A stretch of 59,632 bases of DNA, taken from a virus. Its lineage: Duplodnaviria; Caudoviricetes. A model generated the notes under the pieces. It was not told the origin of the DNA. It saw nothing but the letters and a program-made list of their open reading frames with translations, and searched no databases. The stretch's first letter is position 1. Each line of letters begins with the position of its first letter. Shown here in pieces: positions 12,372-37,970 of the stretch. The stretch is taken from IMG/VR virus record IMGVR_UViG_3300027819_000013, positions 1-59,632 of that record, one strand, 5' to 3'. The position numbers and the translations under genes are program-made.

Positions 12372-13342
12372 TTCCTCTCGCCATCGCTCTCCCTTCCGGC
12401 CGCGTCGCGCGGCTGGTGGCGTTCGCTCAGGATGGGGCCGCATGCTGTCTCCTCGCCACCGCCGACGCTGAGGGTCGGGTCACGCGGTTCGCGCTCGGGG
12501 CCGCGGACACTGCCTCGCTTCGCGCTGAGCTCGACGCGCTCGAATCCATCAGCAAGGTTGAGCTCGCCGCCGAGCTGCGCCGCGTGCGCTCGGATCTCGC
12601 CGCGAAGCTGAAAATCGCGAAGTCTCCGCGTGCGTTCAATACACTGCCGCGTCGCGCTGAGGTTGAGGCGGCGGTGCAGGGGATGCTCTCGCGCGCAGAG
12701 GCCGCGGGGAAGGCGGCAATGATCGCCGAGGTCGGAGCACCAGGTGAGTATGCTGCCTCTTTCACCCCTGTCGCCGCCGCGCGTTGGCTCGCGCAGGCCG
12801 CGTTCTGGATCACGGATGTGCTCGCCGACGATCTGCTCGGTGAGGCGCAGCGCATCCTCGTCAAGGGACTAAAGAACGGTACCGCTACCGGCGAGCTGAT
12901 GCGCGAGCTGTGGGAGGCATTCGTACCGTATCTGGGCGGGGAGGTCGGTGGCAAGGTGGTGAGCGCGCACCGCTTGGAGACCATCGTGCGCACGAACACT
13001 ACCACTGCCTACAACCACGGGCGGCTCACTGCGGCGCTCGACCCGAAGCTCGCGCGATTCGTGGACGGCGTGCGGTACTCGGCGATCTTGGATGAGCGTA
13101 CCACAGAGGTTTGCAAGCTCTTGCATGGTAAGGTATTTCTCACCCCAGCGGGGGCGAAACAGCACGGCGGCGGGGATCAGACTGCGGCACTGGAGGCGTT
13201 ATTGCCCCCAAGACATTTCAATTGCCGCTCGATCATCCACGCGAAAGTCGTCGGCTCGCCGATTCAGCCAGAGGACATAATCACCGACTTTGAGATCGAA
13301 CGCGCAAAGGAGTTGTCCGGCGCGGGGTTCATGCAGCGATGA
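12368..13342 (+). CDS. Minor head protein (MuF/SPP1 gp7 family)
   Basis: RLETIVRTNTTTAYNHG, YSAILDERTTEVC and PPRHFNCRS. Confidence 0.9.
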   Translation: MIPLAIALPSGRVARLVAFAQDGAACCLLATADAEGRVTRFALGAADTASLRAELDALESISKVELAAELRRVRSDLAAKLKIAKSPRAFNTLPRRAEVEAAVQGMLSRAEAAGKAAMIAEVGAPGEYAASFTPVAAARWLAQAAFWITDVLADDLLGEAQRILVKGLKNGTATGELMRELWEAFVPYLGGEVGGKVVSAHRLETIVRTNTTTAYNHGRLTAALDPKLARFVDGVRYSAILDERTTEVCKLLHGKVFLTPAGAKQHGGGDQTAALEALLPPRHFNCRSIIHAKVVGSPIQPEDIITDFEIERAKELSGAGFMQR

Positions 13343-13788
13343 TAGAATTGCTTATTGTCGCGCTCGCGCTATGGGTGACGTTTAATTGGCTGGCGCCGTG
13401 GACTCTGCTTGTGCGCGCGGAGCCGATGAGCCTTGGGCGCGTGTCGCAGGACGTGGCCGCGCGCGCCGCGCAGCTCGGAGTGCGTCTGTACACACAGCGG
13501 TTGCTGCGCCCTGGAGGGTTCTCGGTGCTCGCGTGGCCACAGCGGATCGTGGTGTTCGACAGTGCCTCGCTCGCTTTGACGCCGGCCCCAGCCCTGCGAT
13601 TTTTGATCGCGCACGAGCTGGGGCATTGCGCGCTCGGGCATGTGGGAGAGCGATGGCTGCTCGTGGTGAGTGGGGCAATCCTGTTGCCCGTGGCGCGGCG
13701 ACGTTTGGTCGCAATGGAGCGCGAGGCGGACGCCTACGCCGAGGCGCTGACTGGGGTGCGGGCGGATGAATTCTATGTGCGGCGATGA
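13339..13788 (+). CDS. Membrane zinc metallopeptidase (M48-like)
   Basis: N-terminal transmembrane segment, IAHELGH (HExxH) and EREADAYA. Confidence 0.75.
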   Translation: MIELLIVALALWVTFNWLAPWTLLVRAEPMSLGRVSQDVAARAAQLGVRLYTQRLLRPGGFSVLAWPQRIVVFDSASLALTPAPALRFLIAHELGHCALGHVGERWLLVVSGAILLPVARRRLVAMEREADAYAEALTGVRADEFYVRR

Positions 13789-14085: not shown

Positions 14086-14268
14086 ATGAAGATGTTGCTT
14101 GAACGAGCCGACGCTCTCGTGGCCTCGACCAAGGACTGGTTCACCGGCAAGGAGCGCGAACTTCACCGCGAGCAGGCGGAACTGTTGCAAGAGCTTGCCC
14201 AGAGAGTTCATGCATTGGAAGCGAGCGTCGAGAAGGAAGATGTGTATCATCGGATTGGGTTGCCATGA
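14086..14268 (+). CDS. Hypothetical protein
   Basis: AAGGAG RBS; coiled-coil-like. Confidence 0.55.
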   Translation: MKMLLERADALVASTKDWFTGKERELHREQAELLQELAQRVHALEASVEKEDVYHRIGLP

Positions 14269-15059
14269 GTCGACTTTCGGTGGTGCTGCCGTTGTTTGCG
14301 CCGACGCTGTTCCTGCGAGCGCTCGCGGAGTTTTCGATTCGTACGATGCGCCTGCACGCGGATGATCCATCTTATGAGCTGATTGTTGCAGAAGCGGGTG
14401 GGGATCATTTCGCGCGTTATGAAGCGCACAATTTGATTGTGCAGCCCGAGACTGCGATCGACCGATACTTGGGCTTCCCGCAGCCGATCGGCGGCATTCG
14501 CGAGACCAACGCGGCTATTGATGCCGCTTCCGGCGAGTTCATCGTTTCTACAGGCTCGGACGTGATTGTGCCGAAGGGGTGGGACACAGAACTTTTGCAC
14601 GTATTTGAGGAACGGCCCAAAGATTGCGGAATAGCGAGCTTGTCAGCGTTTGAGCCGGGAGCGACGATCGGCCCGCGCGAGAAGCTCGATATGATCGTCG
14701 AGGGGATGTTCTCGCCGTTCAATATGTTTCGCAAGGGGTGGCGCCTGGATGAAGCGTACAAGCGCATCTACCAGGACTCGGACCTCGTCATGCGCATGTA
14801 CGAGCAGGGGCTGCGCGCCTACCGCAGTTGTAGGTTGCACGTACATCACCTGGGACAGATGACCACCGCGGTGATCGGACCGTCGGTGGGGCACGACCTG
14901 GCGCTCGCGCAGGACGAACGGCTGTTCTACCGTCGCTGGGGTAAATCGCCACTGGCGATGTTCGCGATGATCCGCTCGGGGCAGTACACCTACGGCAACG
15001 AGCACGCCTCGTGGACGAAATCGATCCGCTTGCACTATAACGAGAACACACCGGAATGA
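14265..15059 (+). CDS. Glycosyltransferase family 2 (GT-A fold)
   Basis: LSVVLP, YELIVAE, NAAIDAASGEFIV, GSDVIV, YQDSDLVMR and VHHLG. Confidence 0.8.
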   Translation: MSRLSVVLPLFAPTLFLRALAEFSIRTMRLHADDPSYELIVAEAGGDHFARYEAHNLIVQPETAIDRYLGFPQPIGGIRETNAAIDAASGEFIVSTGSDVIVPKGWDTELLHVFEERPKDCGIASLSAFEPGATIGPREKLDMIVEGMFSPFNMFRKGWRLDEAYKRIYQDSDLVMRMYEQGLRAYRSCRLHVHHLGQMTTAVIGPSVGHDLALAQDERLFYRRWGKSPLAMFAMIRSGQYTYGNEHASWTKSIRLHYNENTPE

Positions 15060-15228: not shown

Positions 15229-15915
15229 ATGAGCGTGAATCGCTATCCACGCCCGGTGCGTGATGTACATCAGATCGAACTGACGACGCGGTGCAATATG
15301 CGCTGCCGTTATTGTCCTAGTCCGCAGAAACTGCGTCCCCACGAGGACATGGTGTGGGAAACGTACGAGGCCGCGCTCGACCTCGTCAAGTTCTACGCGC
15401 GGCAGGGCACGCAGACCGAGTTGTCCCTGACTGGGATCGGCGAGTCGCTCATGTATCCGCGCTTCCTGGAAGCGGTGGCGGCGGCGCGCGTCGCGATAGG
15501 GCCACAGCGGGCGCTAGTGATAACGACGAACGGCATCCTGCTCGACGACGTTATGGCTCAGTCTCTTTCGAAGTTCGCGCCACAAGTCTATGTATCGCTG
15601 CACCGTCCCGAGAAGGCCGGTCCCGCAATCGAGGCAGCGAAGCGCGCCGGGATCTTCAAGGGTTCGAATCCCGCGCCATCCATCTCCGCCTTCAACTGGG
15701 CGGGACAAGTGAAATGGCATGTCTCCGCACCGAGAACGCTATGTGATTACTTACGCCTGGGGTGGGCTGTGGTGCTGGTAGACGGGCGTGTGACCACGTG
15801 CTGCTTGGATGCAACTGGAGACGGCACTTTCGGTACGGTGTGGGACAATCCTGAATCATTGTGCATGAGCCCGTGGAAGCTGTGTGAGTCGTGCCACATG
15901 GAGGTGCCGCGGTGA
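15229..15915 (+). CDS. Radical SAM protein with SPASM/twitch-like C-terminus
   Basis: IELTTRCNMRCRYC, GIGES, ITTNG, DGRVTTCC and LCESC. Confidence 0.85.
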   Translation: MSVNRYPRPVRDVHQIELTTRCNMRCRYCPSPQKLRPHEDMVWETYEAALDLVKFYARQGTQTELSLTGIGESLMYPRFLEAVAAARVAIGPQRALVITTNGILLDDVMAQSLSKFAPQVYVSLHRPEKAGPAIEAAKRAGIFKGSNPAPSISAFNWAGQVKWHVSAPRTLCDYLRLGWAVVLVDGRVTTCCLDATGDGTFGTVWDNPESLCMSPWKLCESCHMEVPR

Positions 15916-16199
15916 ACTGCTCGAAGTGCGGGGTGGAGGCACAGGTGGTTGACGTGGGTTCGGCTTCGGGGCGCAAGACGTTCCGCTGTCCCCAGTGCGG
16001 CGCGCGGTGGCGCGAGAAGAACGCCGCGGCCGTGGCGCTCGGTTCGCTGGGCGGCAAGGCGCGAGCGGAATCACTCTCCGCGGAGGAGCGATCTGAGCAG
16101 GCCGCGCGCGCGATCACCTCCCGCTGGAGTGCTGAGAAGATGCGCGAAAACCCAATCGTTAAAGGGGCACGAGGCATTCTTAGCGGTAAGAAGTTTTAA
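15912..16199 (+). CDS. Zn-ribbon plus basic low-complexity domain protein
   Basis: CSKC...CPQC followed by AAVALGSLGGKARAESLSAEERSE. Confidence 0.55.
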   Translation: MNCSKCGVEAQVVDVGSASGRKTFRCPQCGARWREKNAAAVALGSLGGKARAESLSAEERSEQAARAITSRWSAEKMRENPIVKGARGILSGKKF

Positions 16200-16229: not shown

Positions 16230-17744
16230 ATGCCATACTCTTCGGGTAAGTTCCCTCCGTCTTGGAAGAATCTTGATGCTTCGATGCGCTCGAAGGCAGT
16301 CGAGGTTCTCAACGCCCTTTTAAAAGATGGTATGGCTGAGGGCAAGGCGATCCCAATCGCGTTGTCTCGGGCGCGTGAATTTGTGAAGAATCACGCTGCG
16401 ACGCCGACGATGGACGAATTGATGGCGAAGTGCAAAAAAGATCATCCTGACTGGACTCCAGCGCAGCACAAGGCGTGGGCCGAGGAGCAGATGAAGAAGC
16501 ACAGCGAGTATGCCGAGCAGCACACGAACGCGATCCGCGGCATCGAGGTGTTCGCCGCTGGCACACACAACGGCGACGTGTACACCGAGGCGGACCTCGA
16601 CGAGATGGTCCGGGCACACGGTGAACTCGATTTCCGCCCGGCGCTCAAGGTCGGGCACACGAAAGACTCCCCCGGCGCCCCGGCCTACGGGTGGGTGCGG
16701 AATTTGCGGCGCGTCGGTCAGAAGCTCGTCGCCGATTTCACCGACATGCACGACTCCGTCGTGGATGCTATTCGTAAGCGCGCCTATGACCGAGTCTCCA
16801 GCGAGGTGTACTTCAACCTAAACCGTGGCGGTAAAAAGTTCGGTCGCGCGTTGAAGGCCGTCGCGCTGCTCGGGGCGGATGTGCCGGCGGTCGCGGGACT
16901 TGTGCCATTGCACAAGGTGGAGTTTGCTACCGACGGCGAGTTCGAGAAGTTCACTACTGCGCACGAGGCCGCACTCGACGTGCCGCAGCAGGCAGTGTTC
17001 GAGTGCCTCAACGAGCGCGCCAGCGCGCTGATCCGAGAACTTGTTCAGAAGGAGCACAGCATGAAGACCGCCAAACAACTGCAGGAAGAACTCGACGCGC
17101 TGACCGAGCGGCTCGACGCAATCGGGCGGGACGGAGCCGACGACAAAGAAAAGACTGCCCAAGTCAAGGAACTGTCCGAGGCTATTACCAAAGTTAGCGC
17201 CGAGATCAAGGCGCTTACCGCTGCCGATGAGACCGAGCGCACCGAGATGGCCGCAACACTCAAGGCATCCAACGAACGCATCGCGCAACTCGAAGCCGAC
17301 GCGCGGCGCCGCAGCGTTGCGGAGAAAGTCGCCTCGATCCGCGTGCCGGCGTTCCGTCCCGGGATGGAGGCGGTCTATGCCTACGCGCTGACTCACGCTG
17401 CGGAGAAAGTGCGCGTTTATTCCAAGGACGACAAGGGCAACGAGCGCTCCGAGGAGAAGACCCTGGTCGAGATCGCCGACGTGTTCGTTGCGCAGATCAA
17501 CTCTCAGGCCGAAAAACTCTTCAAGACTTATACGCGAGTGGACGGCATGAACCGCGAGGAAGGCTCGCTCGACGATCCAGCCGAAGATCCGGGCGTCGCG
17601 ATCGATCGTAAAGTGCGCGAGTACATGGCGAAAAATCCGACCGTTAAGGACTACGAGGTCGCGATGGACGCCGTGCGCACGATCGAACCGGAACTGTTCC
17701 GGCGTTATACCGAGGCGGCGCAGGCCCGCGCGAGCGCGCACTGA
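16230..17744 (+). CDS. Prohead protease/scaffold (Mu gpI-like) with small N-terminal helical domain
   Basis: IEVFAAGTH, LKVGH, PAYGWV, YDRVSSE and LKAVALLGADVPAV; coiled-coil C-terminal half; located upstream of the capsid genes. Confidence 0.85.
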   Translation: MPYSSGKFPPSWKNLDASMRSKAVEVLNALLKDGMAEGKAIPIALSRAREFVKNHAATPTMDELMAKCKKDHPDWTPAQHKAWAEEQMKKHSEYAEQHTNAIRGIEVFAAGTHNGDVYTEADLDEMVRAHGELDFRPALKVGHTKDSPGAPAYGWVRNLRRVGQKLVADFTDMHDSVVDAIRKRAYDRVSSEVYFNLNRGGKKFGRALKAVALLGADVPAVAGLVPLHKVEFATDGEFEKFTTAHEAALDVPQQAVFECLNERASALIRELVQKEHSMKTAKQLQEELDALTERLDAIGRDGADDKEKTAQVKELSEAITKVSAEIKALTAADETERTEMAATLKASNERIAQLEADARRRSVAEKVASIRVPAFRPGMEAVYAYALTHAAEKVRVYSKDDKGNERSEEKTLVEIADVFVAQINSQAEKLFKTYTRVDGMNREEGSLDDPAEDPGVAIDRKVREYMAKNPTVKDYEVAMDAVRTIEPELFRRYTEAAQARASAH

Positions 17745-17777: not shown

Positions 17778-18245
17778 ATGAAACGTTTATTCGATTTGAT
17801 CGCGGGGTTCGTCCGGTCTGCGCAGGCTGCATGGGCCGAGTTCGGTAATCAGTGGACGGTTCCCGGTCTGTCGGCTGCGGCTGATCTGTCCGGGGCCAGC
17901 GGCGGCGACAAGCAGTACATCGTCGTGCGCATGGCCGCAGCGACCACGGTGAACATCTGCTCGGAGGTGCTGGTATCCGGGGCGCTGAAAAGCCCGGTGG
18001 GCGTGTTGCAAAATAAGCCCAAGTCCGGCGAGGCAGCCACAATCGCCTACATGGGTCTGAGCAAGGTGCGCGGCGGCGGCACAGTCACCGCCGGGGCCTT
18101 CATCGCCCATAACAGCTCTGGGATGGTGGTGGATGCAGTCTCGGGGGACGTGGTTTGCGGTCGCGCGCTGGAGACCGCTACAGCCGCAAACGAACTCGTC
18201 ACCGCGCTGCTGTTCCCGCCGGTGAAATGGGGTTCGGTAGCGTAG
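17778..18245 (+). CDS. Capsid cement/decoration protein (DUF2190-like)
   Basis: AAADLS...QY, GVLQNKP, GLSKV and GRALETATAANE; position before the major capsid gene. Confidence 0.75.
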   Translation: MKRLFDLIAGFVRSAQAAWAEFGNQWTVPGLSAAADLSGASGGDKQYIVVRMAAATTVNICSEVLVSGALKSPVGVLQNKPKSGEAATIAYMGLSKVRGGGTVTAGAFIAHNSSGMVVDAVSGDVVCGRALETATAANELVTALLFPPVKWGSVA

Positions 18246-18277
18246 CCAACGACATACTCTCAACAGGAGATCACAAT

Positions 18278-19297
18278 ATGAAACGCAACCCCATCAGCTT
18301 CATCCTGCGGAGCGTCGCGGCCTACGTCCAAGCGGCACTCGCTGCGAATCTCACCGGGCGCGACGTGCATATCGACGTGCCATTGTCGAACATCGCGGTG
18401 CAGGCATTCTCGGCTGGAGAGTTCGTTGGACCGCAGTTGTTCCCGGTTGTCCCGGTTGGCAAACAGTCCGATAACTACTACACGATCACCAAGAACACCT
18501 GGTTGCGCCTGCCGCAGTCTACGCTGCGCGCGCCGAAGACCTCGCCACGGCGCGTTGAGTTCGACGTGTCGAGTGATCAATACTTCGCGCACAATTACGC
18601 GCTGGCCGGCGAGAACGCGTTCGAGGTGCTCGCGAACGCGGACAACGCGCTGTCGTTGCGGGCGCGCACCACGCGCAAGGTGGTCGGCGACCTGATGGGC
18701 GACATGGAGGTGCGCATCGCCAACAAGGTCACCTCCATCACTAACATCGGCAGCGGTGTCTCGCTCACCGGCCCGAACAAGTGGTCTGACTATGTCAGCT
18801 CCGACCCCATCAGCGACGTGAACACCGGGCACGCTTTCATCCGCAACAACACCGGGGTGATCGCGAACACGCTGCTGATCGATTACGACAGCTACCAGAT
18901 TGTGCGGCGCCACCCGGTGCTGCTCGACATGTTCAAGTACACTCAAGGCGGACTTTTGAACGATGCAGAACTCCGCGAGGTGTTCCGGGTGCAGAGGTTG
19001 CTGATACCAACGGGCATCCGCAATGCGGCGTTGGAGGGCGGCACGGCGTCGATCGTGAACATCTGGGGGAACAACGCGCTGCTGTGCTACGTGGCGCCGA
19101 CCGCTCCTGGGATGGACACCGTCACGTTCGGCCTCGGCTTTCAGTGGCGTTCGCCGGATCTGCCGGCGCCATTCGTCACGCGCGTCTACAACGACCCCGA
19201 TCCGGGCAAGAAGACCGAGATCACGGAGGTGGGGTACTACCAGGACGAGAAAATCGTTGCGGCGCAACTGGCCTACTTGGTCGGCGCGACGCTGTAA
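18278..19297 (+). CDS. Major capsid protein
   Basis: DVHIDVPLSNIAV, LFPVVPV, KWSDYVSSDPISDV and TFGLGF; AGGAG RBS; position in the head module. Confidence 0.85.
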   Translation: MKRNPISFILRSVAAYVQAALAANLTGRDVHIDVPLSNIAVQAFSAGEFVGPQLFPVVPVGKQSDNYYTITKNTWLRLPQSTLRAPKTSPRRVEFDVSSDQYFAHNYALAGENAFEVLANADNALSLRARTTRKVVGDLMGDMEVRIANKVTSITNIGSGVSLTGPNKWSDYVSSDPISDVNTGHAFIRNNTGVIANTLLIDYDSYQIVRRHPVLLDMFKYTQGGLLNDAELREVFRVQRLLIPTGIRNAALEGGTASIVNIWGNNALLCYVAPTAPGMDTVTFGLGFQWRSPDLPAPFVTRVYNDPDPGKKTEITEVGYYQDEKIVAAQLAYLVGATL

Positions 19298-19325
19298 TCG
19301 TTCATCAACCAACAGGAGCTACGAA

Positions 19326-19550
19326 ATGCTTCGTGAGATCACCAAGCAAGTCGGGCCGCGCCTACGGCCTGGCGATGCCCACGATTACCCGCTTGCGGTC
19401 TGGCAGAAGATCGCCGCTGATGCCAAGCGGCTTAACTTCAAGGAGTTCCCGTCCTTGGACGCTTTTTCCAAGGCGATTGCCCACAATCCGGCGTTGCAGT
19501 CCCCGCTCAAGGGGCGGCTGCGCCGGCCACAGCAACGGCTCGGCGCTTGA
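19326..19550 (+). CDS. Small hypothetical protein after the major capsid gene
   Basis: AGGAG RBS; basic C-terminus. Confidence 0.55.
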   Translation: MLREITKQVGPRLRPGDAHDYPLAVWQKIAADAKRLNFKEFPSLDAFSKAIAHNPALQSPLKGRLRRPQQRLGA

Positions 19551-19583
19551 CCGAGAGAGCATGATTTAACGAGGAGCACCACC

Positions 19584-20225
19584 ATGAAACTGAAGCACCT
19601 GGCTCTGGCGGTCGCGGCGGCGTTCGCGACCTTTGCGCAGGCTTCGCATGCGCGTACACCAACGGAGACGCTGTTTCGGCCGCTGATGCGCGGTCCGATC
19701 ATGACCAAAGCGGGGTCTGCCGCTAATCAGTGGGCGGGCCGCACGACGATCTCCTCCGGGTCGGCCTCTCAGGTGGTGTCTACTACGCAGGCGAACTCGG
19801 ATTCGCTGATCTCGCTGGTGGCGCAATGTACGATGCCGGCGGCGTACGTGGTGCATGGGCAGACGAGCTTTGCGAACTCCGCGGCGGCCTCTGCGACAGC
19901 GTCTACATCTGCCGTCTACAGCGGCTACGCGATCAACGTGTCACTGCTCACCGAGACCTCGGTCGTCTCAGCGGGCGCCGGGATCAATGCGCCGCTGCGC
20001 ATCAACTCCATCGTGGACGGGGTGAGCTTCGCCATCTCTACCTGCAACTCGAACCCGCTGGGCTTCGCCACTGCGGTGGCCAACTGGGAGATCCCTCGCG
20101 CGGACGTTTCGCGGTTGCGCGTGAACACAATCAACCCCGGCAACTATTTCGTCATCGGGTGGGCGGACAACGTCGCGCGGCCGATCGACGTGACGGCAAT
20201 GTGGGAAATTCGGCGTAGTAGCTGA
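19584..20225 (+). CDS. Ser/Thr/Ala-rich putative virion protein
   Basis: GAGGAG RBS; beta-rich composition; head-module position. Confidence 0.6.
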   Translation: MKLKHLALAVAAAFATFAQASHARTPTETLFRPLMRGPIMTKAGSAANQWAGRTTISSGSASQVVSTTQANSDSLISLVAQCTMPAAYVVHGQTSFANSAAASATASTSAVYSGYAINVSLLTETSVVSAGAGINAPLRINSIVDGVSFAISTCNSNPLGFATAVANWEIPRADVSRLRVNTINPGNYFVIGWADNVARPIDVTAMWEIRRSS

Positions 20226-20539
20226 TGAGTCGCGTTCTGTACTCGGTGGTGGTCTCCGGCGCCGCGATTGGCCCAGACGTGGATCTGCGCGAGGGGCAGT
20301 TGGGCGCGGTGCACGTGCCCGTGGTCACGAGCGCGGACCTATACGTGCGCGGAGCGTTTAACACCACCAGCGCGAACTTCGGTCGGCTCTTCAACGAGTA
20401 CGGCGCTGTGCGCTTCCCGACCGGCGCTGGGTCGTGCGTGGCGCTGTGGCCAATGGGCGAGCTGACGCCCCCCTACGTGCGATTCGAATTCTCCGTCGCG
20501 CAAACCGACAACCGTACGCTCACCGTTCTGAGGTACTAG
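20225..20539 (+). CDS. Putative small virion protein
   Basis: Coupled ORF; beta-sandwich-like pattern. Confidence 0.55.
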   Translation: MSRVLYSVVVSGAAIGPDVDLREGQLGAVHVPVVTSADLYVRGAFNTTSANFGRLFNEYGAVRFPTGAGSCVALWPMGELTPPYVRFEFSVAQTDNRTLTVLRY

Positions 20540-20544
20540 CCGCC

Positions 20545-22506
20545 ATGCGGCTGCACGCTCTCAGGCGCCGATCGCTAGGACGCGGGGCGTTGCGCGGGCG
20601 TCGCTTGGCGGCGGAGTTACGTGTACTGCCGATCTTCGCCTGCCGGTTGCAGGCGACGCTCGTCCCCGAGCGCGCCAACGGTTCGGGCACGCCCACCTTC
20701 ACCCGCGCCAGCACGGCGTATCAGACCGACTTCGAGGGCAAACTCAATCTCGCGTTGAGCGGGGAGGCAAGAGTAGGGCAGGGGGCGAGGCGGGTTGCGA
20801 ATTTTCTCACGACGCTTTCTGCGAAATCTGAGGATCTCACTGCAACTGGTGGATGGGGAGTTGCCAGCGCGACATCTACTATTGATGCGGCTGATTTCCC
20901 AACAGGGACAACTAAGTCCACTAGCGTTACCGCTTCTGCTCAATTTGGTGGAGTGACCATTGCTAACGCGTTAACTATAGGTAAGACATATCGTTTCAGG
21001 TACTGGGCGAAAAGCGCGGTAGGCGGCGAAGTTGTTTGGGTTGGTGATGGTATTGGTACAGGAGGAATTGATAACGTAGTAACGACTGTTTGGCAATTGT
21101 ACGCATCGCCAGTGATTGTTGCTGGTAATGCGACACTGAAAGTTGGAATCGGAACAGTTGGTGGCGGAACAGTGAAATTCTCTGGAATTCAGCCAGAGGA
21201 TATTACAGGCCAAGTCAACCAGAACCCCTCCGAATACGTCAGTGTCGGGATTCTCTCCGCGCCTTTCCACGGCGCGAACGTAGATGGCGTCAAGCTGTTC
21301 TCCACCCTGAACGGCAACACGGTCGCAAGCAATGTCGTGACCGAAGCCACCGGAGCGCACATCGACTCCAGCCAAGCCGCCGCAGCAGGCGGTGTAACTG
21401 CTGGCGTGGTCGATGCCTACGGGCCGCTAGGGTATCTGGCGGAGGGGGCGAGGACTAACGACATCCTACAATCGAACACCCTCGGCACGACGTGGACAAT
21501 CAGCAACGCAGCGGACATGAACGCCGTCGCTGCCAATGCTTACGTCTCCGTCGATGGCACGACCACGATGGACAAGTTGCAGCCCAAGGCTACGACTGCG
21601 GTTCACAGTCTTGATCAAGCCTTCACGTTCACGGCGGCGAAGTACACCACGGCGGTTGACCTACGTTATGTTTCTGCAACCCCGCAGCGGTGGGCTGCGC
21701 TGATCCTGAACGACGGCACAACGACATGGGGGGCCAGTTTCGACTTGTTGAATGGCGTGGTCGGCGCGGTATCTGCTGGTGCCACATCGGGCATCGAAGC
21801 GACAGCACAGGCGAACGTGTACCGAGTATGGGTAACGAACACGGCCAATGCTGCGGCTGCTGCAGGTACGGTGAAAATTAGTCTCAACGCTACGGATACT
21901 GCAACGTTGGAGAGCGCAGCACGGGCAGGAACGGAAACGCTTGGCGCCGGAATGGTGCAGCATGAGGTCGGGACATTCAAGAGTTCGCGGATCACTACTA
22001 CCACCGTCGCTGTCGCCCGCAACGCGAGCGTGGATCAGTACGTCAGCGCGGGGAACATTCCCGCTTCGAATAATGACTTCGTGGTCTACGGTGAGAGCGC
22101 GTTCAATCCTGTACCGACAGCAGCGAGTTACTTCCTGTGGGCGTCCTACGTCGATGCCGATAACTACACGGCGGTACTGTGGGATGGTACGAATCTCATC
22201 GCTCGCAAGCGCATCGCCGCCGCCAACCACGACGCTATCATCGCGTTCACACCGACAGCCGGGATCGCGTTTAAGTGGGCAGCACGGTTCACGTCCACAA
22301 TAGGTACGGACATATTTTTGAACGGCACGAAAGGTACGAACGACGCGACGAATACCGCTTGCCAGATAGGGGCGAATTTCCAATGGAGTGCAGATGGTAA
22401 TGGGGCGAATCAACCGTTTGGTACTTTGCGCAATACACGGATATTCGACCGTCCGCGCTTCACGCAGGTGCTAGTGGACATGACGACCGACGGACTCATG
22501 CGGTAA
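20545..22506 (+). CDS. Fibre/spike-like virion protein with probable carbohydrate-binding/LamG-like domains
   Basis: TFTRASTAY, GYLAEGARTN and ITTTTVAVARNA motifs typical of phage fibre proteins; Thr/Ala/Gly-rich. Confidence 0.65.
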   Translation: MRLHALRRRSLGRGALRGRRLAAELRVLPIFACRLQATLVPERANGSGTPTFTRASTAYQTDFEGKLNLALSGEARVGQGARRVANFLTTLSAKSEDLTATGGWGVASATSTIDAADFPTGTTKSTSVTASAQFGGVTIANALTIGKTYRFRYWAKSAVGGEVVWVGDGIGTGGIDNVVTTVWQLYASPVIVAGNATLKVGIGTVGGGTVKFSGIQPEDITGQVNQNPSEYVSVGILSAPFHGANVDGVKLFSTLNGNTVASNVVTEATGAHIDSSQAAAAGGVTAGVVDAYGPLGYLAEGARTNDILQSNTLGTTWTISNAADMNAVAANAYVSVDGTTTMDKLQPKATTAVHSLDQAFTFTAAKYTTAVDLRYVSATPQRWAALILNDGTTTWGASFDLLNGVVGAVSAGATSGIEATAQANVYRVWVTNTANAAAAAGTVKISLNATDTATLESAARAGTETLGAGMVQHEVGTFKSSRITTTTVAVARNASVDQYVSAGNIPASNNDFVVYGESAFNPVPTAASYFLWASYVDADNYTAVLWDGTNLIARKRIAAANHDAIIAFTPTAGIAFKWAARFTSTIGTDIFLNGTKGTNDATNTACQIGANFQWSADGNGANQPFGTLRNTRIFDRPRFTQVLVDMTTDGLMR

Positions 22507-22530
22507 TTTTTTCAATTAACGGAGACCTAC

Positions 22531-25500
22531 ATGAAGATAGGCAAGACGAAGTTCGACATTCTGCTCGCGGTGCCAGGCATGGCATTCAACGGCGAGACGT
22601 TCGAGCGGCTTTCGATCGGTGGCTCGGAGAGCGCTGGTTATTATATGGGCCGAGCGCTCGCCGCGCGGGGGCACCGGGTGACGGTGTTCTGCGGCACAAA
22701 AGAGCCGCAGCGCTCGAAGGACGTGGATTACCTCCCGATCGAGATGTTTCGCGCGTACGCGGAATACACCCCGCACGACGTGTGCATCGTGCAGCGCCTG
22801 CCGGAACTGCTCGGTGGACACGTGCGCTCGCGATTCACAGCGCTGTGGTGTCATGACCTGGCGCTTGGCCGTTCGGAACCGGCGGTGAAAGGGGTGGCTT
22901 GGAACTATGACAAATTGTTCGTGCTCTCGGAGTTCATGCGCGACCAGTATAAGCGCACGTACTCCGTGCCGAACGAGCTGTTGCACTTGACGCGCAATGG
23001 CGTCGATTTGGCTACCGTCGAGCGAGCGCGCGCCGCGTTGCCGGCTGACGCGGCGCGCAACCCACTGGCGATGGTCTACGCGGCGCGTCCCGAGCGGGGA
23101 CTCGATGTGCTGCTCGCTGAGATCATGCCGCGCATCCTCAAAGTCGAGCCGCAGGCGCGGCTCTTCCTCGCCACGTATGACAACCGCGTCGATCATCTCG
23201 CGGACTTCTACGCGCATTGCAAGACGCTCGCGGATCGCTTACCGCAGAATGTGCAATACCTCGGGCATCTGACGAAGGAGCAGTTGTATTCGACGCTGCT
23301 CTCTGCAGGAGTGTATGTATACCCGGTGCCGAGCAAGATTGTGCCAGATTTCGATGAAATATCATGCCTCGCGGTGATGGAGGCACAGGCATGCGGGTTG
23401 CCAGTCGTTACTTCCGCTCGCGGGGCGTTGCCGGAGACGCTGGCGCCAGAGGCGGGCGCCCTGATCGGTGGCAAGGTGCATACGGCAGAATATTACGACG
23501 CCTTCGCGGATGCGGTCTTGCGGTTGATGCGCGACCCCGCGGCGTGGCGCGCGGCGTCCGCCGCCGGGCTGGAGCGCGCGACGCAGTTGGACTGGGCGGG
23601 GGTGGCCGAGGACTGGGAGGCGCTATTCGAGCGTGAGATTCGGCTGCACAGTTATGATCTGGCGACGATGGCAAATCATTTCTGGCGCCGCTCGGATATT
23701 TATGCGGCGCGTGAATGCTTACGGCGCTTGCCAATAGGTGACGAGAAAAGCCGTCATGTGCGTGAGCGCATCTCGACGGACTGGGCGTTCCTGGATCAGC
23801 CGGATGGCTTTCGCGAGCAATACGAGCGGATCGGCGGTACACACGACGCGCGTGTCATAGACTGGTCGTTGCAGGAGCCGCGATATCGCGTGTTCGACCA
23901 GTGGCTGACGAAGCATGCGGAGTCGGTACGTACTGCGCTGGACTACGGCTGCGCCCATGGCGGTTACGCTGTGAATCTGCTTAAGGAACACCCCGAGCTG
24001 CGCGTCACGGGCGTGGACATCGATGCGCACGGCATCGAGATGGCTTACGCCTTCGCCGAGCAGCGCGGGGTAGCGGATCGTTGGCGCGGCGTGGTCGGGT
24101 CTCATGAACGGCTTTCTGATTCGATGTTGTCAGAGATGATCGAAGAGTATGACGTGGCGATCGCGCAGGAAGTGCTGGAGCATGTGCCGGACCCTGCGGC
24201 GGTACTGCGCGCGCTGGAGGCACGGGTGCGCGACGGAGGGTACGTATATGCAACAGTGCCATTTGGACCATGGGAGTACACCGATTACAGCCGCTACCCG
24301 CACCGTGCGCACGTCTGGGAGTTCGATCAACATGATCTGCACGAGTTGCTGGACTGTAAAGGGGCTACTGCGGAGGTAACGATCTCGGCGATGCCTTACG
24401 GGCATGAGCCAAACACGGACGAGTCGCTCGGGTGGTGGGTGATCGAGTATCGGGTGACGCCGGAGACGCGTGGGAGGCTCGGCGCGATCGACATGGAGCG
24501 CAAGCTCTGGCTCCAGCGCCCACGCCAGACGGTGTCTGCGAACATTATCGCTGGCCCAAATAGCGAGGAGACGCTGCACTGGTGTCTGCGCGCGCTGGAA
24601 CACGTGGCGGATGAGGTGCTGGTGGCGGACTGCGGGCTGTCGGCTGAAGCGCTGCGTGTGCTCGGTACGTACGACTCGCGTCTTCGAGTGGTGCCGGGCG
24701 TGGATCCAAAGACCGAAGGGTTCGAGGCACCGCGTAACCTCGTGCTGGGGCAGGCAACGCAAGATTTCGTGCTATGGGTGGACACCGACGAGAAGCTCCT
24801 GCAGCCCGAGCGGCTGCACAAATATCTGCGGCGCAATGTGTTTCAGGGCTACTCGATCCGGCAGCACCACTTCGCCGTGGATACGGCATTCGAGCCCGAT
24901 CTGCCGGTGCGGCTGTTCCGCAACAATGGCAAATTGCGTTTTTATGGTTGCATCCACGAGCACCCCGAGAGCGACATCAACGAAGGTCCGGGTCGCATCA
25001 TCGTGCTCAACGATGTGCATATCGCGCACAACGGGTACCTGATCGAGAGTGGGCGACAGCGGCGCTTTGAGCGCAACTACCCGCTGCTTCAGATGGACAT
25101 CCAGAAGTATCCCACGCGCAAACTTCAGAAACATTTCATCATGCGCGACAACATGCTAATGTGCAGTTACGAACTGAAACAGAACGGCGGCCGCATCACG
25201 GAATCAATCTTGCAGCGCTGCCGCGAAACCATCGATCTATATCGCGAGCATTTCTTGGGTAAGGGTCACTTCACGAACTCCGATCCGCTGCAATATTATT
25301 CGCAGGCGGTCGGACTGCTTGCCTCGACGACCGGGGAGGGAATCGATTTCGCGTTCCAAATGGCGGCGGATAAGATGGATGCCAGCGGCAAGTTGAACGG
25401 CGTCGTCAAGGCGCGCTTCGCCAACATCGAGGACGCGCAGGCGGAAATCATGCACCGCGTGCGCGACGTGGCCGAGCCATACAGCAGGGCGTACTACTAA
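22531..25500 (+). CDS. Tri-domain GT4 glycosyltransferase - SAM methyltransferase - GT2 glycosyltransferase
   Basis: GT-B: IGGSE, ERGLDVLL, EISCLAVMEAQACGLPVV. MTase: LDYGCAHG, EVLEHV. GT-A: VDTDE, IHEHP, HNGY. Confidence 0.9.
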   Translation: MKIGKTKFDILLAVPGMAFNGETFERLSIGGSESAGYYMGRALAARGHRVTVFCGTKEPQRSKDVDYLPIEMFRAYAEYTPHDVCIVQRLPELLGGHVRSRFTALWCHDLALGRSEPAVKGVAWNYDKLFVLSEFMRDQYKRTYSVPNELLHLTRNGVDLATVERARAALPADAARNPLAMVYAARPERGLDVLLAEIMPRILKVEPQARLFLATYDNRVDHLADFYAHCKTLADRLPQNVQYLGHLTKEQLYSTLLSAGVYVYPVPSKIVPDFDEISCLAVMEAQACGLPVVTSARGALPETLAPEAGALIGGKVHTAEYYDAFADAVLRLMRDPAAWRAASAAGLERATQLDWAGVAEDWEALFEREIRLHSYDLATMANHFWRRSDIYAARECLRRLPIGDEKSRHVRERISTDWAFLDQPDGFREQYERIGGTHDARVIDWSLQEPRYRVFDQWLTKHAESVRTALDYGCAHGGYAVNLLKEHPELRVTGVDIDAHGIEMAYAFAEQRGVADRWRGVVGSHERLSDSMLSEMIEEYDVAIAQEVLEHVPDPAAVLRALEARVRDGGYVYATVPFGPWEYTDYSRYPHRAHVWEFDQHDLHELLDCKGATAEVTISAMPYGHEPNTDESLGWWVIEYRVTPETRGRLGAIDMERKLWLQRPRQTVSANIIAGPNSEETLHWCLRALEHVADEVLVADCGLSAEALRVLGTYDSRLRVVPGVDPKTEGFEAPRNLVLGQATQDFVLWVDTDEKLLQPERLHKYLRRNVFQGYSIRQHHFAVDTAFEPDLPVRLFRNNGKLRFYGCIHEHPESDINEGPGRIIVLNDVHIAHNGYLIESGRQRRFERNYPLLQMDIQKYPTRKLQKHFIMRDNMLMCSYELKQNGGRITESILQRCRETIDLYREHFLGKGHFTNSDPLQYYSQAVGLLASTTGEGIDFAFQMAADKMDASGKLNGVVKARFANIEDAQAEIMHRVRDVAEPYSRAYY

Positions 25501-25501
25501 T

Positions 25502-26005
25502 ATGAGTGTCCAGTCGCTTTCTTACACATCGGTGACGCGAGTGAACTCCGCGTTTCCGATGATCACGTCGGTTTCCAACATCACTAGCGGCGTCGTCGCC
25601 CAATACGCGGATGACGCCGAGGCGGAAATCGACGCGCGGATCAGCGCCCGCTACGCGTTGCCATTGGGCGTGACGTGTCCGATCCTGGTGGCAATTGCGA
25701 CCCGCGAGACAATCTACAACATCGCCACGCAGCGCGGGCTGGTGCAGTTCCCGCCCGCGCAGCAGGGACGTGCGCCGCTCTATCAGCGCCACTTAGATGA
25801 CCAGAAGCTCCTGGAGGCGATCGCCGACGGCAGCGTGCAGCTCGTCACGAGCTCAGGCGCCGTGATCGCGGCGGATACCTCGCAAAAGCAAATCTACAGT
25901 ACGACGATGGACTACGTGCCAACCTTCAGCGAAGGCAGCCAGGTGGATCAGGTGCAGGATCAGGACAAACTCGATGATGATCTCACGAACCGAGGGCTAA
26001 CGTGA
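25502..26005 (+). CDS. Head-tail adaptor (Mu gp36/DUF1320-like)
   Basis: AEAEIDARISARYALPL and LLEAIADGSVQL. Confidence 0.8.
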   Translation: MSVQSLSYTSVTRVNSAFPMITSVSNITSGVVAQYADDAEAEIDARISARYALPLGVTCPILVAIATRETIYNIATQRGLVQFPPAQQGRAPLYQRHLDDQKLLEAIADGSVQLVTSSGAVIAADTSQKQIYSTTMDYVPTFSEGSQVDQVQDQDKLDDDLTNRGLT

Positions 26006-26538
26006 CGACAATCAATTTGGATACCGTGATCCGACGCGCGGATCTCGACCGGCTGCTGTCGGTTCTGGAGCCGAGCGCTGTGCTCGGCGTCATCAAGTTG
26101 CGACTGCTGGAGTTCGTTCATGAGAGCTTTGAGACTCGGGGGCGTGGAGGTTGGAAACCTTTGGCCATGTCGACTCTCGCTCTGCGGATGCGCGGAGGTG
26201 ATGTGCCGCTGCAGGACACCGGGCGATACAAGCAATCGTTCGTCAGCGAATCCGACAACCAGACCCACGTCGAGGTGGGGACTAGCCTGAAGGCGGCGAG
26301 CGGCGTGCCTCTCGGGCCGATTCACGAACACGGCACTGGGCCGTACACGATCCGTGTGAATCGAGCGCGCGTGCTCGCGGCGAAGACGCGCGCTGGAACG
26401 TGGATGATTTTCGGGCGCGAAGTGCGACATCCTGGAATCCCGGCACGCCCCGTGCTACCAACGGTACGCCAGGCCGAAGACGCTTTGAAACCAACACTGG
26501 AAGGTATGTTGGAGCGGACGAAAGATGGCGGCGATTGA
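26002..26538 (+). CDS. Virion morphogenesis/neck protein (Mu gpG-like)
   Basis: WKPLAMST, LQDTG, VGTSL, IHEHG and IPARPVL. Confidence 0.8.
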   Translation: MTTINLDTVIRRADLDRLLSVLEPSAVLGVIKLRLLEFVHESFETRGRGGWKPLAMSTLALRMRGGDVPLQDTGRYKQSFVSESDNQTHVEVGTSLKAASGVPLGPIHEHGTGPYTIRVNRARVLAAKTRAGTWMIFGREVRHPGIPARPVLPTVRQAEDALKPTLEGMLERTKDGGD

Positions 26539-26977
26539 CTACATTGGAATCTTGTCTTCGCTGAAAACGATCTTCGAGGCGGACTCGCGCACCTCTACGG
26601 CGCGCGTCTACGTCGAGGAAGATCCGCAGTTCGGGATGGCTGACGCTGGTCGAGCGATCGTGCTGACGCTGGTCAGCCGGGCGCCGTTCGCGGGTCAATC
26701 CATCGCCGCGGGCAAGCGTACACGTTATCTCGCGCGGATCGGGGTGTGGAGCATTGGGTTCGACGTGGAATCGTTCAACGCGGCATGCCAGAAGCGTGAT
26801 GCGTTGCTCGCGCAGGTGGAGCTTGTGCTTATGGACAATCGCACGATTAGTGGCAAGGTCACCGCTTCACAGCTCGAAGGCGGGGAGTTTATGAGTGTAC
26901 GTAATCCAGGGGAAAATGTTTTTTGCGCTGGAGCCGAGACGGCGGTCAGCGCGGAAGTGGCGGCAATCAACACCTAA
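26525..26977 (+). CDS. Putative tail terminator
   Basis: Size and position between the neck and tail tube genes. Confidence 0.55.
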   Translation: MAAIDYIGILSSLKTIFEADSRTSTARVYVEEDPQFGMADAGRAIVLTLVSRAPFAGQSIAAGKRTRYLARIGVWSIGFDVESFNAACQKRDALLAQVELVLMDNRTISGKVTASQLEGGEFMSVRNPGENVFCAGAETAVSAEVAAINT

Positions 26978-26993
26978 AGAAGGAGGCATCATC

Positions 26994-28028
26994 ATGAAAA
27001 GACTCGATCGAATTTACTGGATCACGTTGTTGCTTGCGCCGTTTGTGCAATGGGGGCTGCGGCTCCAGGCGCTCTACGCGCAAGGGCATCTCGGTTATAT
27101 CGGCATCGCGAAGGAGGCGGCGTTTGGCACCGCGGTGGCCGCAACTGATTACTTCGAGATCATGTCGACAAATCTCACGGAGTCCATCGATCGGTTCCCG
27201 ACGCGCAACGCATTTGGCGGATTCTACGAGCCGGACGATTACGCGGGTGCGCGGCGTGTTGCCGGCAACCTCGTAATGTTTGGACACCCAGTGTCGTTGG
27301 GGCTTTTGCTGAAGGCCGCGATGAATACAATCAGCGGTTCAGCGGTGCTGTCCGGGTTTCTGCATACATCACGATTCATCACGGTGAAGAGCGATTTCAG
27401 CAATCTGATTGCGGGACAGCCGCACACGCTCGAAGTTCATCACGATGTGACCAGCTCGCATCAATTCATAGGGGCTGTGTGCAATCGGTTACAACTCTCG
27501 CTCGCGCCGAACCAGGATCTGCGGGTCACGGCGGATTGGATTGCGCAGGCAGGCGGTCTGATCGCGAAGACCTCACCGACATTTCCGGGGTCGCCGACTG
27601 ATCCGTTTACGTTCGATTCTGCATCGCTCTCTATTGGTGGTTCAGCTACGGCGCGATGGGAGGCGTTCAACCTCACGGTGGACAACAATTTCGACGGCAT
27701 TTTGGCGTTGAACGCTAGCAATCAAATCATTCGTGTACGCCGTCGTGGTCCACAGACGGTACGAATCTCCGGTGTGTTGGACTTCATCGACGTGGCCGAA
27801 TACTTGGACTTCAAGAACCAGACCGAGCGTCAGATTCAGATGACGCTGACGCGAGCGAATAGTTTCCGACTGTTGATTGATGCGCCACGATTTGTCTACA
27901 CGACGTTCCCGACCGGCATCCCGGGACGCGATCGATTGACGGTCGGTGTGGACGGTATCGCGCGATATAACACCACATCCGCAGTGGCGATTGACATCGG
28001 ATTGACAACTACCAAGTCGAATTATTAA
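26994..28028 (+). CDS. Tail tube (major tail) protein
   Basis: YIGIAKEAAFGTAV, FNLTVDNN and ISGVLDF; AAGGAGG RBS; precedes chaperone and tape measure genes. Confidence 0.8.
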   Translation: MKRLDRIYWITLLLAPFVQWGLRLQALYAQGHLGYIGIAKEAAFGTAVAATDYFEIMSTNLTESIDRFPTRNAFGGFYEPDDYAGARRVAGNLVMFGHPVSLGLLLKAAMNTISGSAVLSGFLHTSRFITVKSDFSNLIAGQPHTLEVHHDVTSSHQFIGAVCNRLQLSLAPNQDLRVTADWIAQAGGLIAKTSPTFPGSPTDPFTFDSASLSIGGSATARWEAFNLTVDNNFDGILALNASNQIIRVRRRGPQTVRISGVLDFIDVAEYLDFKNQTERQIQMTLTRANSFRLLIDAPRFVYTTFPTGIPGRDRLTVGVDGIARYNTTSAVAIDIGLTTTKSNY

Positions 28029-34979: not shown

Positions 34980-35115
34980 ATGCCAATGAATGGCGTGCTG
35001 CCATGAACGACAGGGAGCGAAACTTTCTAAGCAAGGGCATGGGCTATGTCGTGGCTGCGTTGTCCACGATTGCCCTGATCCTTACGATTGCATCAAAAAT
35101 CACCGGAGGTACACC

Positions 35116-35259
35116 ATGACACTCGCGCTTGTAATCGTTGCCTGCATTCTGTTCCTGCTCGCCGGGGTCAATGTACCGGCAGGAGCTCGCGCAAACTGGA
35201 TCGGCCTCGGGCTGTTCTTTTTTGCATTGAGTGGGATATGGAATCAGATCCTAAAATGA
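35116..35259 (+). CDS. Small two-TM membrane protein
   Basis: GGAGG RBS; MTLALVIVACILFLLAG...WIGLGLFFFAL. Confidence 0.55.
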   Translation: MTLALVIVACILFLLAGVNVPAGARANWIGLGLFFFALSGIWNQILK

Positions 35260-35882
35260 ATGCTGGTATATATCAGATCCAAAACTTAGTTAACTGGAAA
35301 AGATATATTGGCAGCGCCATAGATATTAACAGGCGTTGGGGCGAGCATAGGAGAAGGCTGCTTTGTGGCACGCATGTCAATAAGCATCTTCAGTCTGCGT
35401 GGAACAAATATGGTAGTGCGCAATTTTCGTTCAAGACACTTTTAATATGCACTCCAGAACAGCTATTAATTTTTGAGCAGATATGTTTTAAGGCACTAAA
35501 TCCAGAATACAACAAAACACCCACCGCTGGCTCCAGCTTTGGCTATAAGCATTCAGAAGAAACAAAACAGAAATTGAGAAATATGAAATTAGGCGTGAAA
35601 CTTTCTTATGAAACTAGATTAAAAATGAGTCGGTCATCTATAGGGAAACGCAAAACAAAAGCAACGAAAGAAAAAATGAGCATTGCCGGAAAATTAATGC
35701 GGGAGCGAAACCTCGCTAATTTACAAGTGGCTCGCTTTGCTCCAAGCAGAAAGGGGGTACCACTATCTCTTGAAACGCGCGCAAAGATGAGCGCAAAAGC
35801 CAAGTTAAGACCAGATTCATATTACGAAAAAATGAGATCCGGGAAAGCGGCATATCTAAAACGAATGGAGGTTGTTCTATGA
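35256..35882 (+). mobile_element. Free-standing GIY-YIG homing endonuclease with NUMOD3-like repeats
   Basis: GIYQIQN...YIGSA, HLQSAWNKYG and HSEETKQKL/ETRLKMS/ETRAKMS; markedly AT-rich. Confidence 0.9.
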
Positions 35883-37703: not shown

Positions 37704-37970
37704 ATGAAAGACAAATTTAGGATGGTTCAGTGGCTGCTATTCGCGGCATTTTTCTATGCACTCGCGCTCCTTGCCTTCGGATCACAACCGCAACTGCAAA
37801 CTCTGTGCTGGAAATTGGGCAATGTAACGGTAGCCGGCTTCGTCGGTTACAAGTTGGATATCCACGCGTTCAAATCGGTCTGGAAAGGAAACACAGGCTC
37901 CGACCTATGGCAGATTCGGCGCGCGATCGTGATGGCGGCGGCGATGCTGGCGGTGTCGACGGGACTATGA
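37704..37970 (+). CDS. Putative holin
   Basis: Two or three TM segments; WKLGNVTVAGFVGY and RRAIVMAA; directly upstream of the endolysin. Confidence 0.75.
   Translation: MKDKFRMVQWLLFAAFFYALALLAFGSQPQLQTLCWKLGNVTVAGFVGYKLDIHAFKSVWKGNTGSDLWQIRRAIVMAAAMLAVSTGL

Follow-up and report, generated by a model that had tools for sequence, protein, structure and literature searches.

Tailed phages assemble in the cytoplasm of their host, and two kinds of maturation cut are known, one made by the prohead protease inside the shell and the other, in staphylococcal phages, by the host protease Prp. In Staphylococcus phage 80alpha, the capsid and scaffold proteins share an N-terminal sequence that is cut by Prp, and for phage phi13 the Prp motif is also reported, on its major tail protein (PMC5744158). 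In phage T4, a capsid targeting sequence forms an N-terminal tag on internal proteins and is removed by the prohead protease (PMC3012670). The present work deals with a complete virus record of 59,632 nucleotides (59.6 kb), IMG/VR record IMGVR_UViG_3300027819_000013, which was analysed over its full length and is called the window below. Four virion proteins encoded in the window, namely the small head protein, the major capsid protein, protein C and the tail tube protein, carry N-terminal extensions of 19-28 residues that share a motif. An earlier sequence-only reading of the same DNA had called the first of these proteins cement and the third an accessory protein. We put roughly even odds (a probability of about 0.5) on the extension being a removable leader that is cut by a 149-residue, membrane-anchored, M48/M56-like zinc peptidase of the phage itself.

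The locus resembles the Prp system in that a short N-terminal sequence occurs on non-homologous virion proteins of both head and tail, and in that one protease other than the prohead protease removes the leader for a purpose that is unclear, as is likewise proposed here (PMC5744158). Prp is a host cysteine protease with ribosomal protein L27 as its normal substrate, whereas the candidate in the window is phage-encoded, zinc-dependent and membrane-anchored. Prp leaders are 13-14 residues long, non-hydrophobic and cut between F and A; the leaders described here are 15-47 residues long, resemble signal peptides and carry the motif [Y/W/F]-[A/V]-x-x-x-L-[A/G] in place of a Prp-type site. The sequence-only reading had cited 80alpha as a precedent with a different motif, which is correct, but it had also counted the coverage of the tail as a difference, and the Prp motif reported for the phi13 major tail protein removes that distinction (PMC5744158). 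The likeness to the T4 capsid targeting sequence lies in a conserved tag on otherwise unrelated proteins that acts as an address before it is cleaved away, the cut being a proposal in our case. In T4 the tag brings proteins into the scaffolding core of the prohead, whereas here the shell protein, surface-type proteins and the tail tube are tagged, and the tag is hydrophobic. A literature search at the level of titles and abstracts, with supplements outside its scope, returned no account of capsid and tube proteins with signal-peptide-like leaders and none of a phage M48-like leader peptidase.

The four N-termini, their open reading frames (ORFs) and a literal QAxxA string in each were found where the sequence-only reading had placed them. 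Its statement that every start has a strong ribosome binding site agrees with the Shine-Dalgarno-like sites located 6-8 nt before each ATG (AAGGAGG, AGGAG, GAGGAG and AAGGAGG); AAGGAGG stands 6 nt upstream of both the small-head-protein start and the tube start. It had also noted that Met is missing from the leader ends. There is indeed no ATG at any of the four, and the in-frame GTG and TTG codons nearby (codon 30 of the capsid gene; positions 27027, 27030 and 27045 in the tube gene) lack a Shine-Dalgarno-like site. The family-like sequence begins behind the leader, as had been proposed: the PF18906 alignment starts at tube residue 32, the phrog_1005 alignment at capsid residue 27 (profile position 7), and leaderless homologues of the small head protein begin M-AEFG. 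Capsid matches in a set of 50,697 phage records are all below 60% identity, and among the 40 matches listed the alignment starts at query residue 24-29. A wrong choice of start codon was considered and discarded, because the leader ends are free of ATG, the GTG and TTG codons have no ribosome site, and the leaders are conserved in more than 100 homologues of two families.

Leaderless homologues are known for all four proteins, and relative to them the leaders are additions. Among the best 120 of 591 capsid homologues, 114 have a leader of 17-45 residues, one is a fragment and five have no leader; these five are at 62-63% identity, one of them with a different, longer N-terminus, and every homologue above ~63% identity has a leader. 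Of the 80 capsid loci in IMG/VR, only L001-L005 have it, and the others with a readable N-terminus begin M-x(0-10)-TGRD. The small head protein occurs with a leader in 19 distinct relatives and begins M-AEFG in its leaderless forms (L003, L006-L011, L113, L116, L119 and L124). For protein C, leader forms are present in 20 distinct relatives, and leaderless ones, which begin M-x(2-4)-L-E-x-L-F, in L003, L006/7, L010, L113, L117-L121 and L126. The best 120 tube homologues comprise 105 with a leader of 16-47 residues, 12 without (M-[S/A/G]-QG), two that could not be anchored by pattern and one fragment. The fragments P0023 and P0268, as well as leader-like strings in leaderless small head proteins (MTTAAS... 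and two others), had been left out before counting. At 90% identity, the capsids of the large, uncultured leader-bearing clade form at least 114 clusters, most of them from metagenomes of groundwater and soil. Capsid and tube entries that probably belong to the same phage were paired by hand; 16 of 19 pairs have both leaders, and the remaining three have the capsid leader only. The idea of one common tag added to four unrelated high-copy virion proteins is borne out by these comparisons, and from the sequences the leaders look made for removal.

The leaders share a conserved layout: a basic start, a hydrophobic stretch, the motif [Y/W/F]-[A/V]-[E/Q/x]-x-x-L-[A/G], then 2-3 residues and the mature start. 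They were aligned on the mature start, and position numbers count back from it. The profile of 113 distinct capsid leaders has Y at -10 in 84, A at -9 in 63, E or Q at -8 in 69, L at -5 in 88, A at -4 in 86 and L at -1 in 98. The 105 tube leaders have Y or W at -10 in 90, A at -9 in 66, E at -8 in 40 (E or Q in 50), L at -5 in 81 or Q in 18, and A at -4 in 78. A matrix was derived from capsid leaders only, over positions -13 to -4, with 2219 other N-termini as the null (99th percentile, 6.9); a 10-wide matrix with junction residues peculiar to the capsid had not recognised the other families. With the capsid-only matrix, the score passes the 99th percentile for 17 of the 20 leaders on the small head protein, for 19 of the 20 on protein C and for 90 of the 105 on the tube. 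In the small head protein the best match of this matrix stops two residues short of AEFG, and in 97 of the 105 tubes it stops three residues short of the QG anchor. The QAxxA motif of the sequence-only reading does not survive this alignment, as it mixes two registers, with Q at -8 in capsid and protein C and at -5 in small head protein and tube; it was dropped for the family-wide register. A matrix scan of the 2237 candidate starts in the window found no further real gene with such a leader. The N-terminus of the holin reaches a moderate score of 8.8, for the sole reason that it is hydrophobic.

The greasy helical part of the leader is free in both length and sequence, and the junction motif is fixed. 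This bears on whether the leaders might be permanent, uncleaved N-terminal helices that take part in contacts between subunits, in the binding of chaperones or in contact with the membrane during infection. In the AlphaFold2 (AF2) model of the capsid protein the leader forms a helix at residues 5-21, followed by a linker at residues 24-42 with a predicted local distance difference test score (pLDDT) below 50, and a separate helix on a flexible linker would suit such a role. In 80alpha, moreover, the phage can do without cleavage of its capsid leader, and it needs the scaffold leader for assembly and not for cleavage (PMC5744158). Yet particles of the same kinds are formed from leaderless homologues of each of the four proteins, and a helix that varies freely (16-47 residues in tubes) next to a fixed junction motif fits a processing site better than a structural element. 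We regard permanent helices as quite unlikely.

A likeness to Sec signal peptides is evident in the basic start, a more or less hydrophobic core and the small residues near the end. Lys or Arg occurs within residues 2-6 of 113/113 capsid, 18/19 small-head-protein, 20/20 protein C and 4/4 tube leaders. The median uncharged run is 14 in capsid leaders and 11-14.5 across the families, and the median best 10-residue hydropathy of capsid leaders is 2.26. The motif end [A/V]-L-[A/G] would place small residues at -3 and -1, and residues 1-23 of protein C in the window look like a textbook signal peptide. All this would be expected of true Sec-type signal peptides cut by host signal peptidase I, with some or all of the subunits crossing or inserting into the inner membrane, but we consider that explanation very unlikely. 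Capsid and tail tube assemble in the cytoplasm, where they must meet DNA, terminase and the tail initiator; the passengers here are just such proteins, a capsid (phrog_1005) and a tail tube (PF18906), and not proteins acting outside the cytoplasm. Furthermore, the uncharged run is shorter than 10 in 9/113 capsid, 5/19 small-head-protein, 4/20 protein C and 35/105 tube leaders, and it is only 6 in the small-head-protein leader of the window. The closest relatives of the window tube (84% identity) have polar leaders of 20 residues. A Sec signal is expected to have an uninterrupted hydrophobic core of ~10 residues or more, and many leaders, with uncharged runs of less than 10, are improbable Sec signals. 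Unlike general Sec signals, the leaders also have a fixed aromatic residue, frequent Glu and concerted change within a phage, and some are too short or too polar. We know of no host protein with this leader. Given the variable greasy part, the short uncharged runs and the polar tube leaders, the junction motif is the constant part of the leader. The routing to the membrane that had been suggested earlier remains plausible, considering the basic starts of all 113 capsid leaders, their median uncharged run and the membrane anchor of the candidate peptidase.

Two other export signals were considered. In most relatives (e.g. L108:11203-11937 and L102:11290-11913) the protein C leader ends L-[A/G]-C, and so does the small-head-protein leader of one subclade; the copies in the window have no Cys. 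Such ends resemble a lipobox, but Glu stands 5-6 residues before the Cys, and the PROSITE lipobox rule presumably excludes leaders with that upstream Glu. A lipoprotein signal was rejected on this ground and for the lack of Cys in the window leaders. A twin-arginine (Tat) signal was rejected as well, no twin-arginine motif being visible in the capsid leaders.

The leaders of different proteins resemble each other more within a phage than between phages, with mean local scores of 30.5 and 24.5, respectively (36 and 695 pairs), and 0 of 2000 shuffles of the locus labels reached the observed likeness. This test is inflated by the kinship of the phages; what it shows is lineage-wise co-variation across protein families. 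An unusually short leader with YAER-x-LAL is common to the capsid, the small head protein and the tube of L126. L099 has an identical run of 52 nt before its small-head-protein and capsid genes (L099:4424-4475 and L099:4942-4993), made up of 14 nt of upstream sequence that includes the Shine-Dalgarno site and 38 nt of leader coding sequence. This identity suggests recent copying of ribosome site and leader from one gene to the other within the genome. Concerted change of this kind points to a single reader of the leaders.

The best candidate for that reader is the 149-residue protein. It matches PF01435 with 23.8 bits (gathering cut-off, 20.3) over residues 67-116 only. H92-E93-x-x-H96 and E127-x-x-A130-D131 are invariant in 19 sequences, and H92, E93 and H96 are also invariant in 37 more distant ones. 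We take the second element to be an ExxAD-type motif, with Glu as the third zinc ligand; E127, A130 and D131 lie on helix 117-138 of the AF2 model (pLDDT 93.4). The closest structure found with Foldseek is the membrane-plus-protease domain of BlaR1, with a query-normalised TM-score (TMq) of 0.60-0.63 (8exq_A: E 1.3e-3, probability 1.00, TMq 0.60), followed by ZMPSTE24 (E 3.3e-3), selecase, Ste24p and HtpX. The best solved relative by sequence is the minigluzincin selecase (E 0.0015). By fold and active-site residues the protein is an intact M48/M56-type gluzincin, with predicted activity. It shares HExxH and a Glu in an ExxAD helix with BlaR1/MecR1 (M56), Ste24/ZMPSTE24/HtpX (M48) and selecase. 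It differs from the BlaR1-type gluzincins in being far smaller, with one membrane helix and ~120 residues, in having no sensor domain, and in being encoded in a phage head operon. BlaR1 is a membrane protease that cuts a cytoplasmic protein. The single membrane helix of the phage protein is N-terminal, and 18 of 19 aligned N-termini have no Lys or Arg before it; after the helix follows the consensus R-A-E-R/P-M-S-x-G-R with two Arg, and R34 never varies. Under the positive-inside rule, such a distribution of charges would place the catalytic domain in the cytoplasm. The family is small: a search of 1.84 billion proteins gave 47 representatives at E <= 1e-10. A search of IMG/VR for more distant peptidase loci gave one weak partial match, in a 218-kb contig, which is uninformative.

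A complex was modelled from the peptidase alignment, capsid residues 1-60 and Zn, and three ordinary proteins served as controls. The complex score was 0.72, compared with 0.00 for the best of the controls. The mark used for this score is reached by 58 of 80 solved complexes and by 2 of 110 mismatched pairs, a calibration that is rough for models made from our own alignments with a ligand. At least 31% of the contacts are shared between runs, and the partner pLDDT is at least 50. Leader residues 10-24, which include the motif, are predicted to contact peptidase residues 16-26 at the end of the membrane helix, residues 53-64 and 72 in strands, and residues 102-109, 123 and 126; the invariant residues N16, A19, R105 and W106 are among them. 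On the AF2 model, the contacted regions frame a cleft between the strand edge, the helix that follows HExxH and the Glu helix.

Gene content was compared between leader and leaderless loci. Loci with identical capsid C-termini were treated as duplicates, which reduced 171 loci to 120, and counts were made on those of the remaining loci that extend 5 kb or more upstream from the capsid gene, 7 with and 37 without a leader. Eight leader loci had been called, but L045 was dropped as a crude classifier call, since by eye its N-terminus consists of 15 polar residues. The zinc peptidase is present in 5/7 leader loci and 0/37 leaderless loci, the zinc-ribbon gene in 7/7 and 0/37, a GT2 gene of the type next to the peptidase in 6/7 and 1/37, and the radical S-adenosylmethionine (SAM) gene in 7/7 and 8/37. 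All three IMG/VR loci with the peptidase belong to the leader clade, and L001, with 4.8 kb upstream, has it too. Of the two leader loci without a peptidase match, L102 is cut inside the GT2 gene that elsewhere follows the peptidase gene. The other, L003, belongs to record G001 (57 kb, 59% complete), which gave no match to the peptidase profile in a search that returned the window copy at 2.5e-67. G001 is also the one phage that has a capsid leader, a longer one in two parts, but none on its tube (G001:C1:39403-40359), small head protein and protein C. The G001-type subclade gave no M48-like gene and no small GT2. Three more phages of the G001 type may exist, in records of 97,843, 45,553 and 43,953 nt.

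A correlation of the leaders with glycosyltransferase and peptidase genes had been suggested as a check by the sequence-only reading. It holds for the peptidase and the small GT2 and fails for the large glycosyltransferase gene: matches to the 989-residue GT4-methyltransferase-GT2 type occur in 31/31 leaderless and 6/6 leader loci with at least 5 kb downstream. A gene present in all 31 leaderless relatives is independent of the leaders. As far as gene content tells, the wider phage group as a whole has a glycosyltransferase gene in its structural operon. Since the small GT2, the zinc-ribbon gene and the peptidase travel together, the leaders may have a link to glycosylation through the small GT2. 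In mycobacteriophages, capsid and tube proteins are glycosylated by phage glycosyltransferases (as cited in PMC11600133). The sequence-only reading had likened the leaders to those of the ribosomally synthesised and post-translationally modified peptides (RiPPs), which are bound by a modifying enzyme or recognition domain and removed once the core is modified. The radical SAM protein, whose gene also occurs in 8/37 leaderless loci, scores below the cut-offs of the NCBIfam peptide-maturase models and matches over the core only.

The leaders could instead be propeptides that are removed by the prohead protease-scaffold protein, with the zinc peptidase doing something else. The gene for that protein lies directly upstream of the small-head-protein and capsid genes, G001 keeps its capsid leader without a detectable zinc peptidase, and E or Q at -8, after an aromatic residue and Ala, recalls what we take to be the Glu-specific sites of T4-type proteases. 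Cleavage of the capsid N-terminus by prohead proteases is also common (PMC5744158). Such propeptides would be expected on proteins of the prohead interior or shell, but 105 of 120 homologues of the tail tube, which is assembled outside the prohead, carry the same motif, and 97 of these 105 have it in the same register. E or Q at -8 is moreover limited to 69/113 capsid and 50/105 tube leaders, and the prohead protease is equally present in all 37 leaderless loci. Removal by the prohead protease is unlikely on this evidence.

Several observations weigh against cleavage by the zinc peptidase. H92, E93 and H96 fall outside the confident contacts of the complex model, and the controls did not include a hydrophobic decoy; a greasy helix may lie along the membrane helix for its greasiness alone. 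The distribution of the zinc-ribbon gene agrees with that of the leaders more closely than the distribution of the peptidase, and that of the GT2 gene agrees about as well as the peptidase. As all capsids above ~63% identity have leaders, a single acquisition could explain most of the co-occurrence. G001 retains a capsid leader with no detectable peptidase, and at least this leader is independent of the peptidase unless the gene lies in the absent 41% of the genome. The x-[A/V]-L-A of the motif is also compatible with the -3/-1 rule for cleavage by host signal peptidase I. Finally, the tube and the HExxH protein had zero matches in the 50,697 phage records, and no cultured relative was found.

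The most economical explanation is nevertheless one removable tag and one phage factor that reaches both head and tail proteins, and the membrane zinc peptidase is the best candidate for this factor. The four proteins would be made as precursors with a common N-terminal leader, which would hold the subunit at the cytoplasmic face of the inner membrane or bring it there. The motif would dock in the cleft of the single-pass, BlaR1-like peptidase, whose catalytic domain would face the cytoplasm. The putative cut near the junction of leader and mature part would release an N-terminus close to that of the leaderless phages. Unlike the prohead protease, a peptidase in this position could reach proteins outside the prohead, such as the tube and the surface proteins. 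Possible purposes of the detour are a delay of self-assembly or a coupling of assembly to modification by GT2. Tentatively, the latter can be extended to a leader-guided maturation line, in which leaders park the subunits at the membrane, GT2 and perhaps the radical SAM enzyme modify them, and the BlaR1-like peptidase then cuts and so licenses assembly. This extended scheme, taken jointly with a modification that is fed by the phage's own sugar pathway, is possible but rather unlikely.

The features of the window are listed in Table 1. The head operon begins with terminase, a Mu-type portal and a MuF-like protein, followed by the 149-residue HExxH protein, GT2, the radical SAM enzyme and the zinc-ribbon protein. 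Next come the prohead protease-scaffold fusion, the small head protein (phrog_673) and the major capsid protein (phrog_1005), and after these a 74-residue protein, protein C, a 104-residue protein, a large protein and the 989-residue GT4-methyltransferase-GT2. Beyond these lie the genes of the neck, followed by those of the tail tube (PF18906) and the tape measure.

Table 1. Coordinates of the leaders and of neighbouring genes in the window.
Feature	Coordinates	Strand	Basis or remarks
Membrane-anchored minimal M48/M56-like zinc peptidase, 149 residues (candidate leader peptidase)	13339-13788	+	PF01435, active-site residues, fold
GT2-like glycosyltransferase	14265-15059	+	PF00535 weak (E 5e-4, below cut-off)
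Radical SAM enzyme	15229-15915	+	PF04055, E 2e-14; longest ORF from 15118, homologues begin ~15229
Zinc-ribbon protein	15891-16199	+	Zinc-ribbon Pfam matches, all below cut-off
Prohead protease-scaffold fusion	16230-17744	+	phrog_976 (E 2.4e-31) and phrog_3894 (E 3.9e-20), both 'head maturation protease'
Small head protein leader, 19 residues	17778-17834	+	Mature part 17835-18245, begins AEFG
Major capsid protein leader, 25 residues (phrog_1005, lambda-E-like)	18278-18352	+	Mature part 18353-19297, begins TGRDVHID
Protein C leader, ~23 residues	19584-19652	+	Through motif end FATFAQASHA; protein C has 213 residues
GT4-methyltransferase-GT2, 989 residues	22531-25500		Structural operon gene
Tail tube leader, 28 residues (PF18906)	26994-27077	+	Mature part from 27078, begins AQGHLGYIG

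The small head protein and protein C have no match in NCBIfam or Pfam. For protein C, the ESM Atlas gave sub-threshold leads only (0.89, with K1-lyase_C in 18-45% of cluster members), which were not used. The zinc-ribbon protein has a basic, Ala/Arg-rich tail. A homing-endonuclease-like ORF lies among the distal tail genes at 35088-35882 (phrog_314, E 1.6e-29), and an ordinary lysis pair at 37704-38653 consists of a holin (phrog_1528, E 4e-14) that overlaps the start of an endolysin-like ORF (phrog_669, E 3e-38). L082 and L083 are short contigs whose capsid and small-head-protein genes are near-identical; their binning in a Sulfuritalea metagenome-assembled genome (MAG) and a Gemmatimonadaceae MAG provides weak and conflicting hints of the host.

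If the zinc peptidase does remove the leaders, it would be a third kind of virion maturation protease beside the prohead proteases and host Prp, and leader and peptidase would form a small, portable pair of tag and cutter. The tag may show how high-copy, self-assembling subunits avoid early polymerisation or pass modifying enzymes. Were the maturation line real, it would extend the logic of the RiPPs to structural proteins. For genome annotation, signal-peptide predictors would call capsid and tube proteins of this type secreted.

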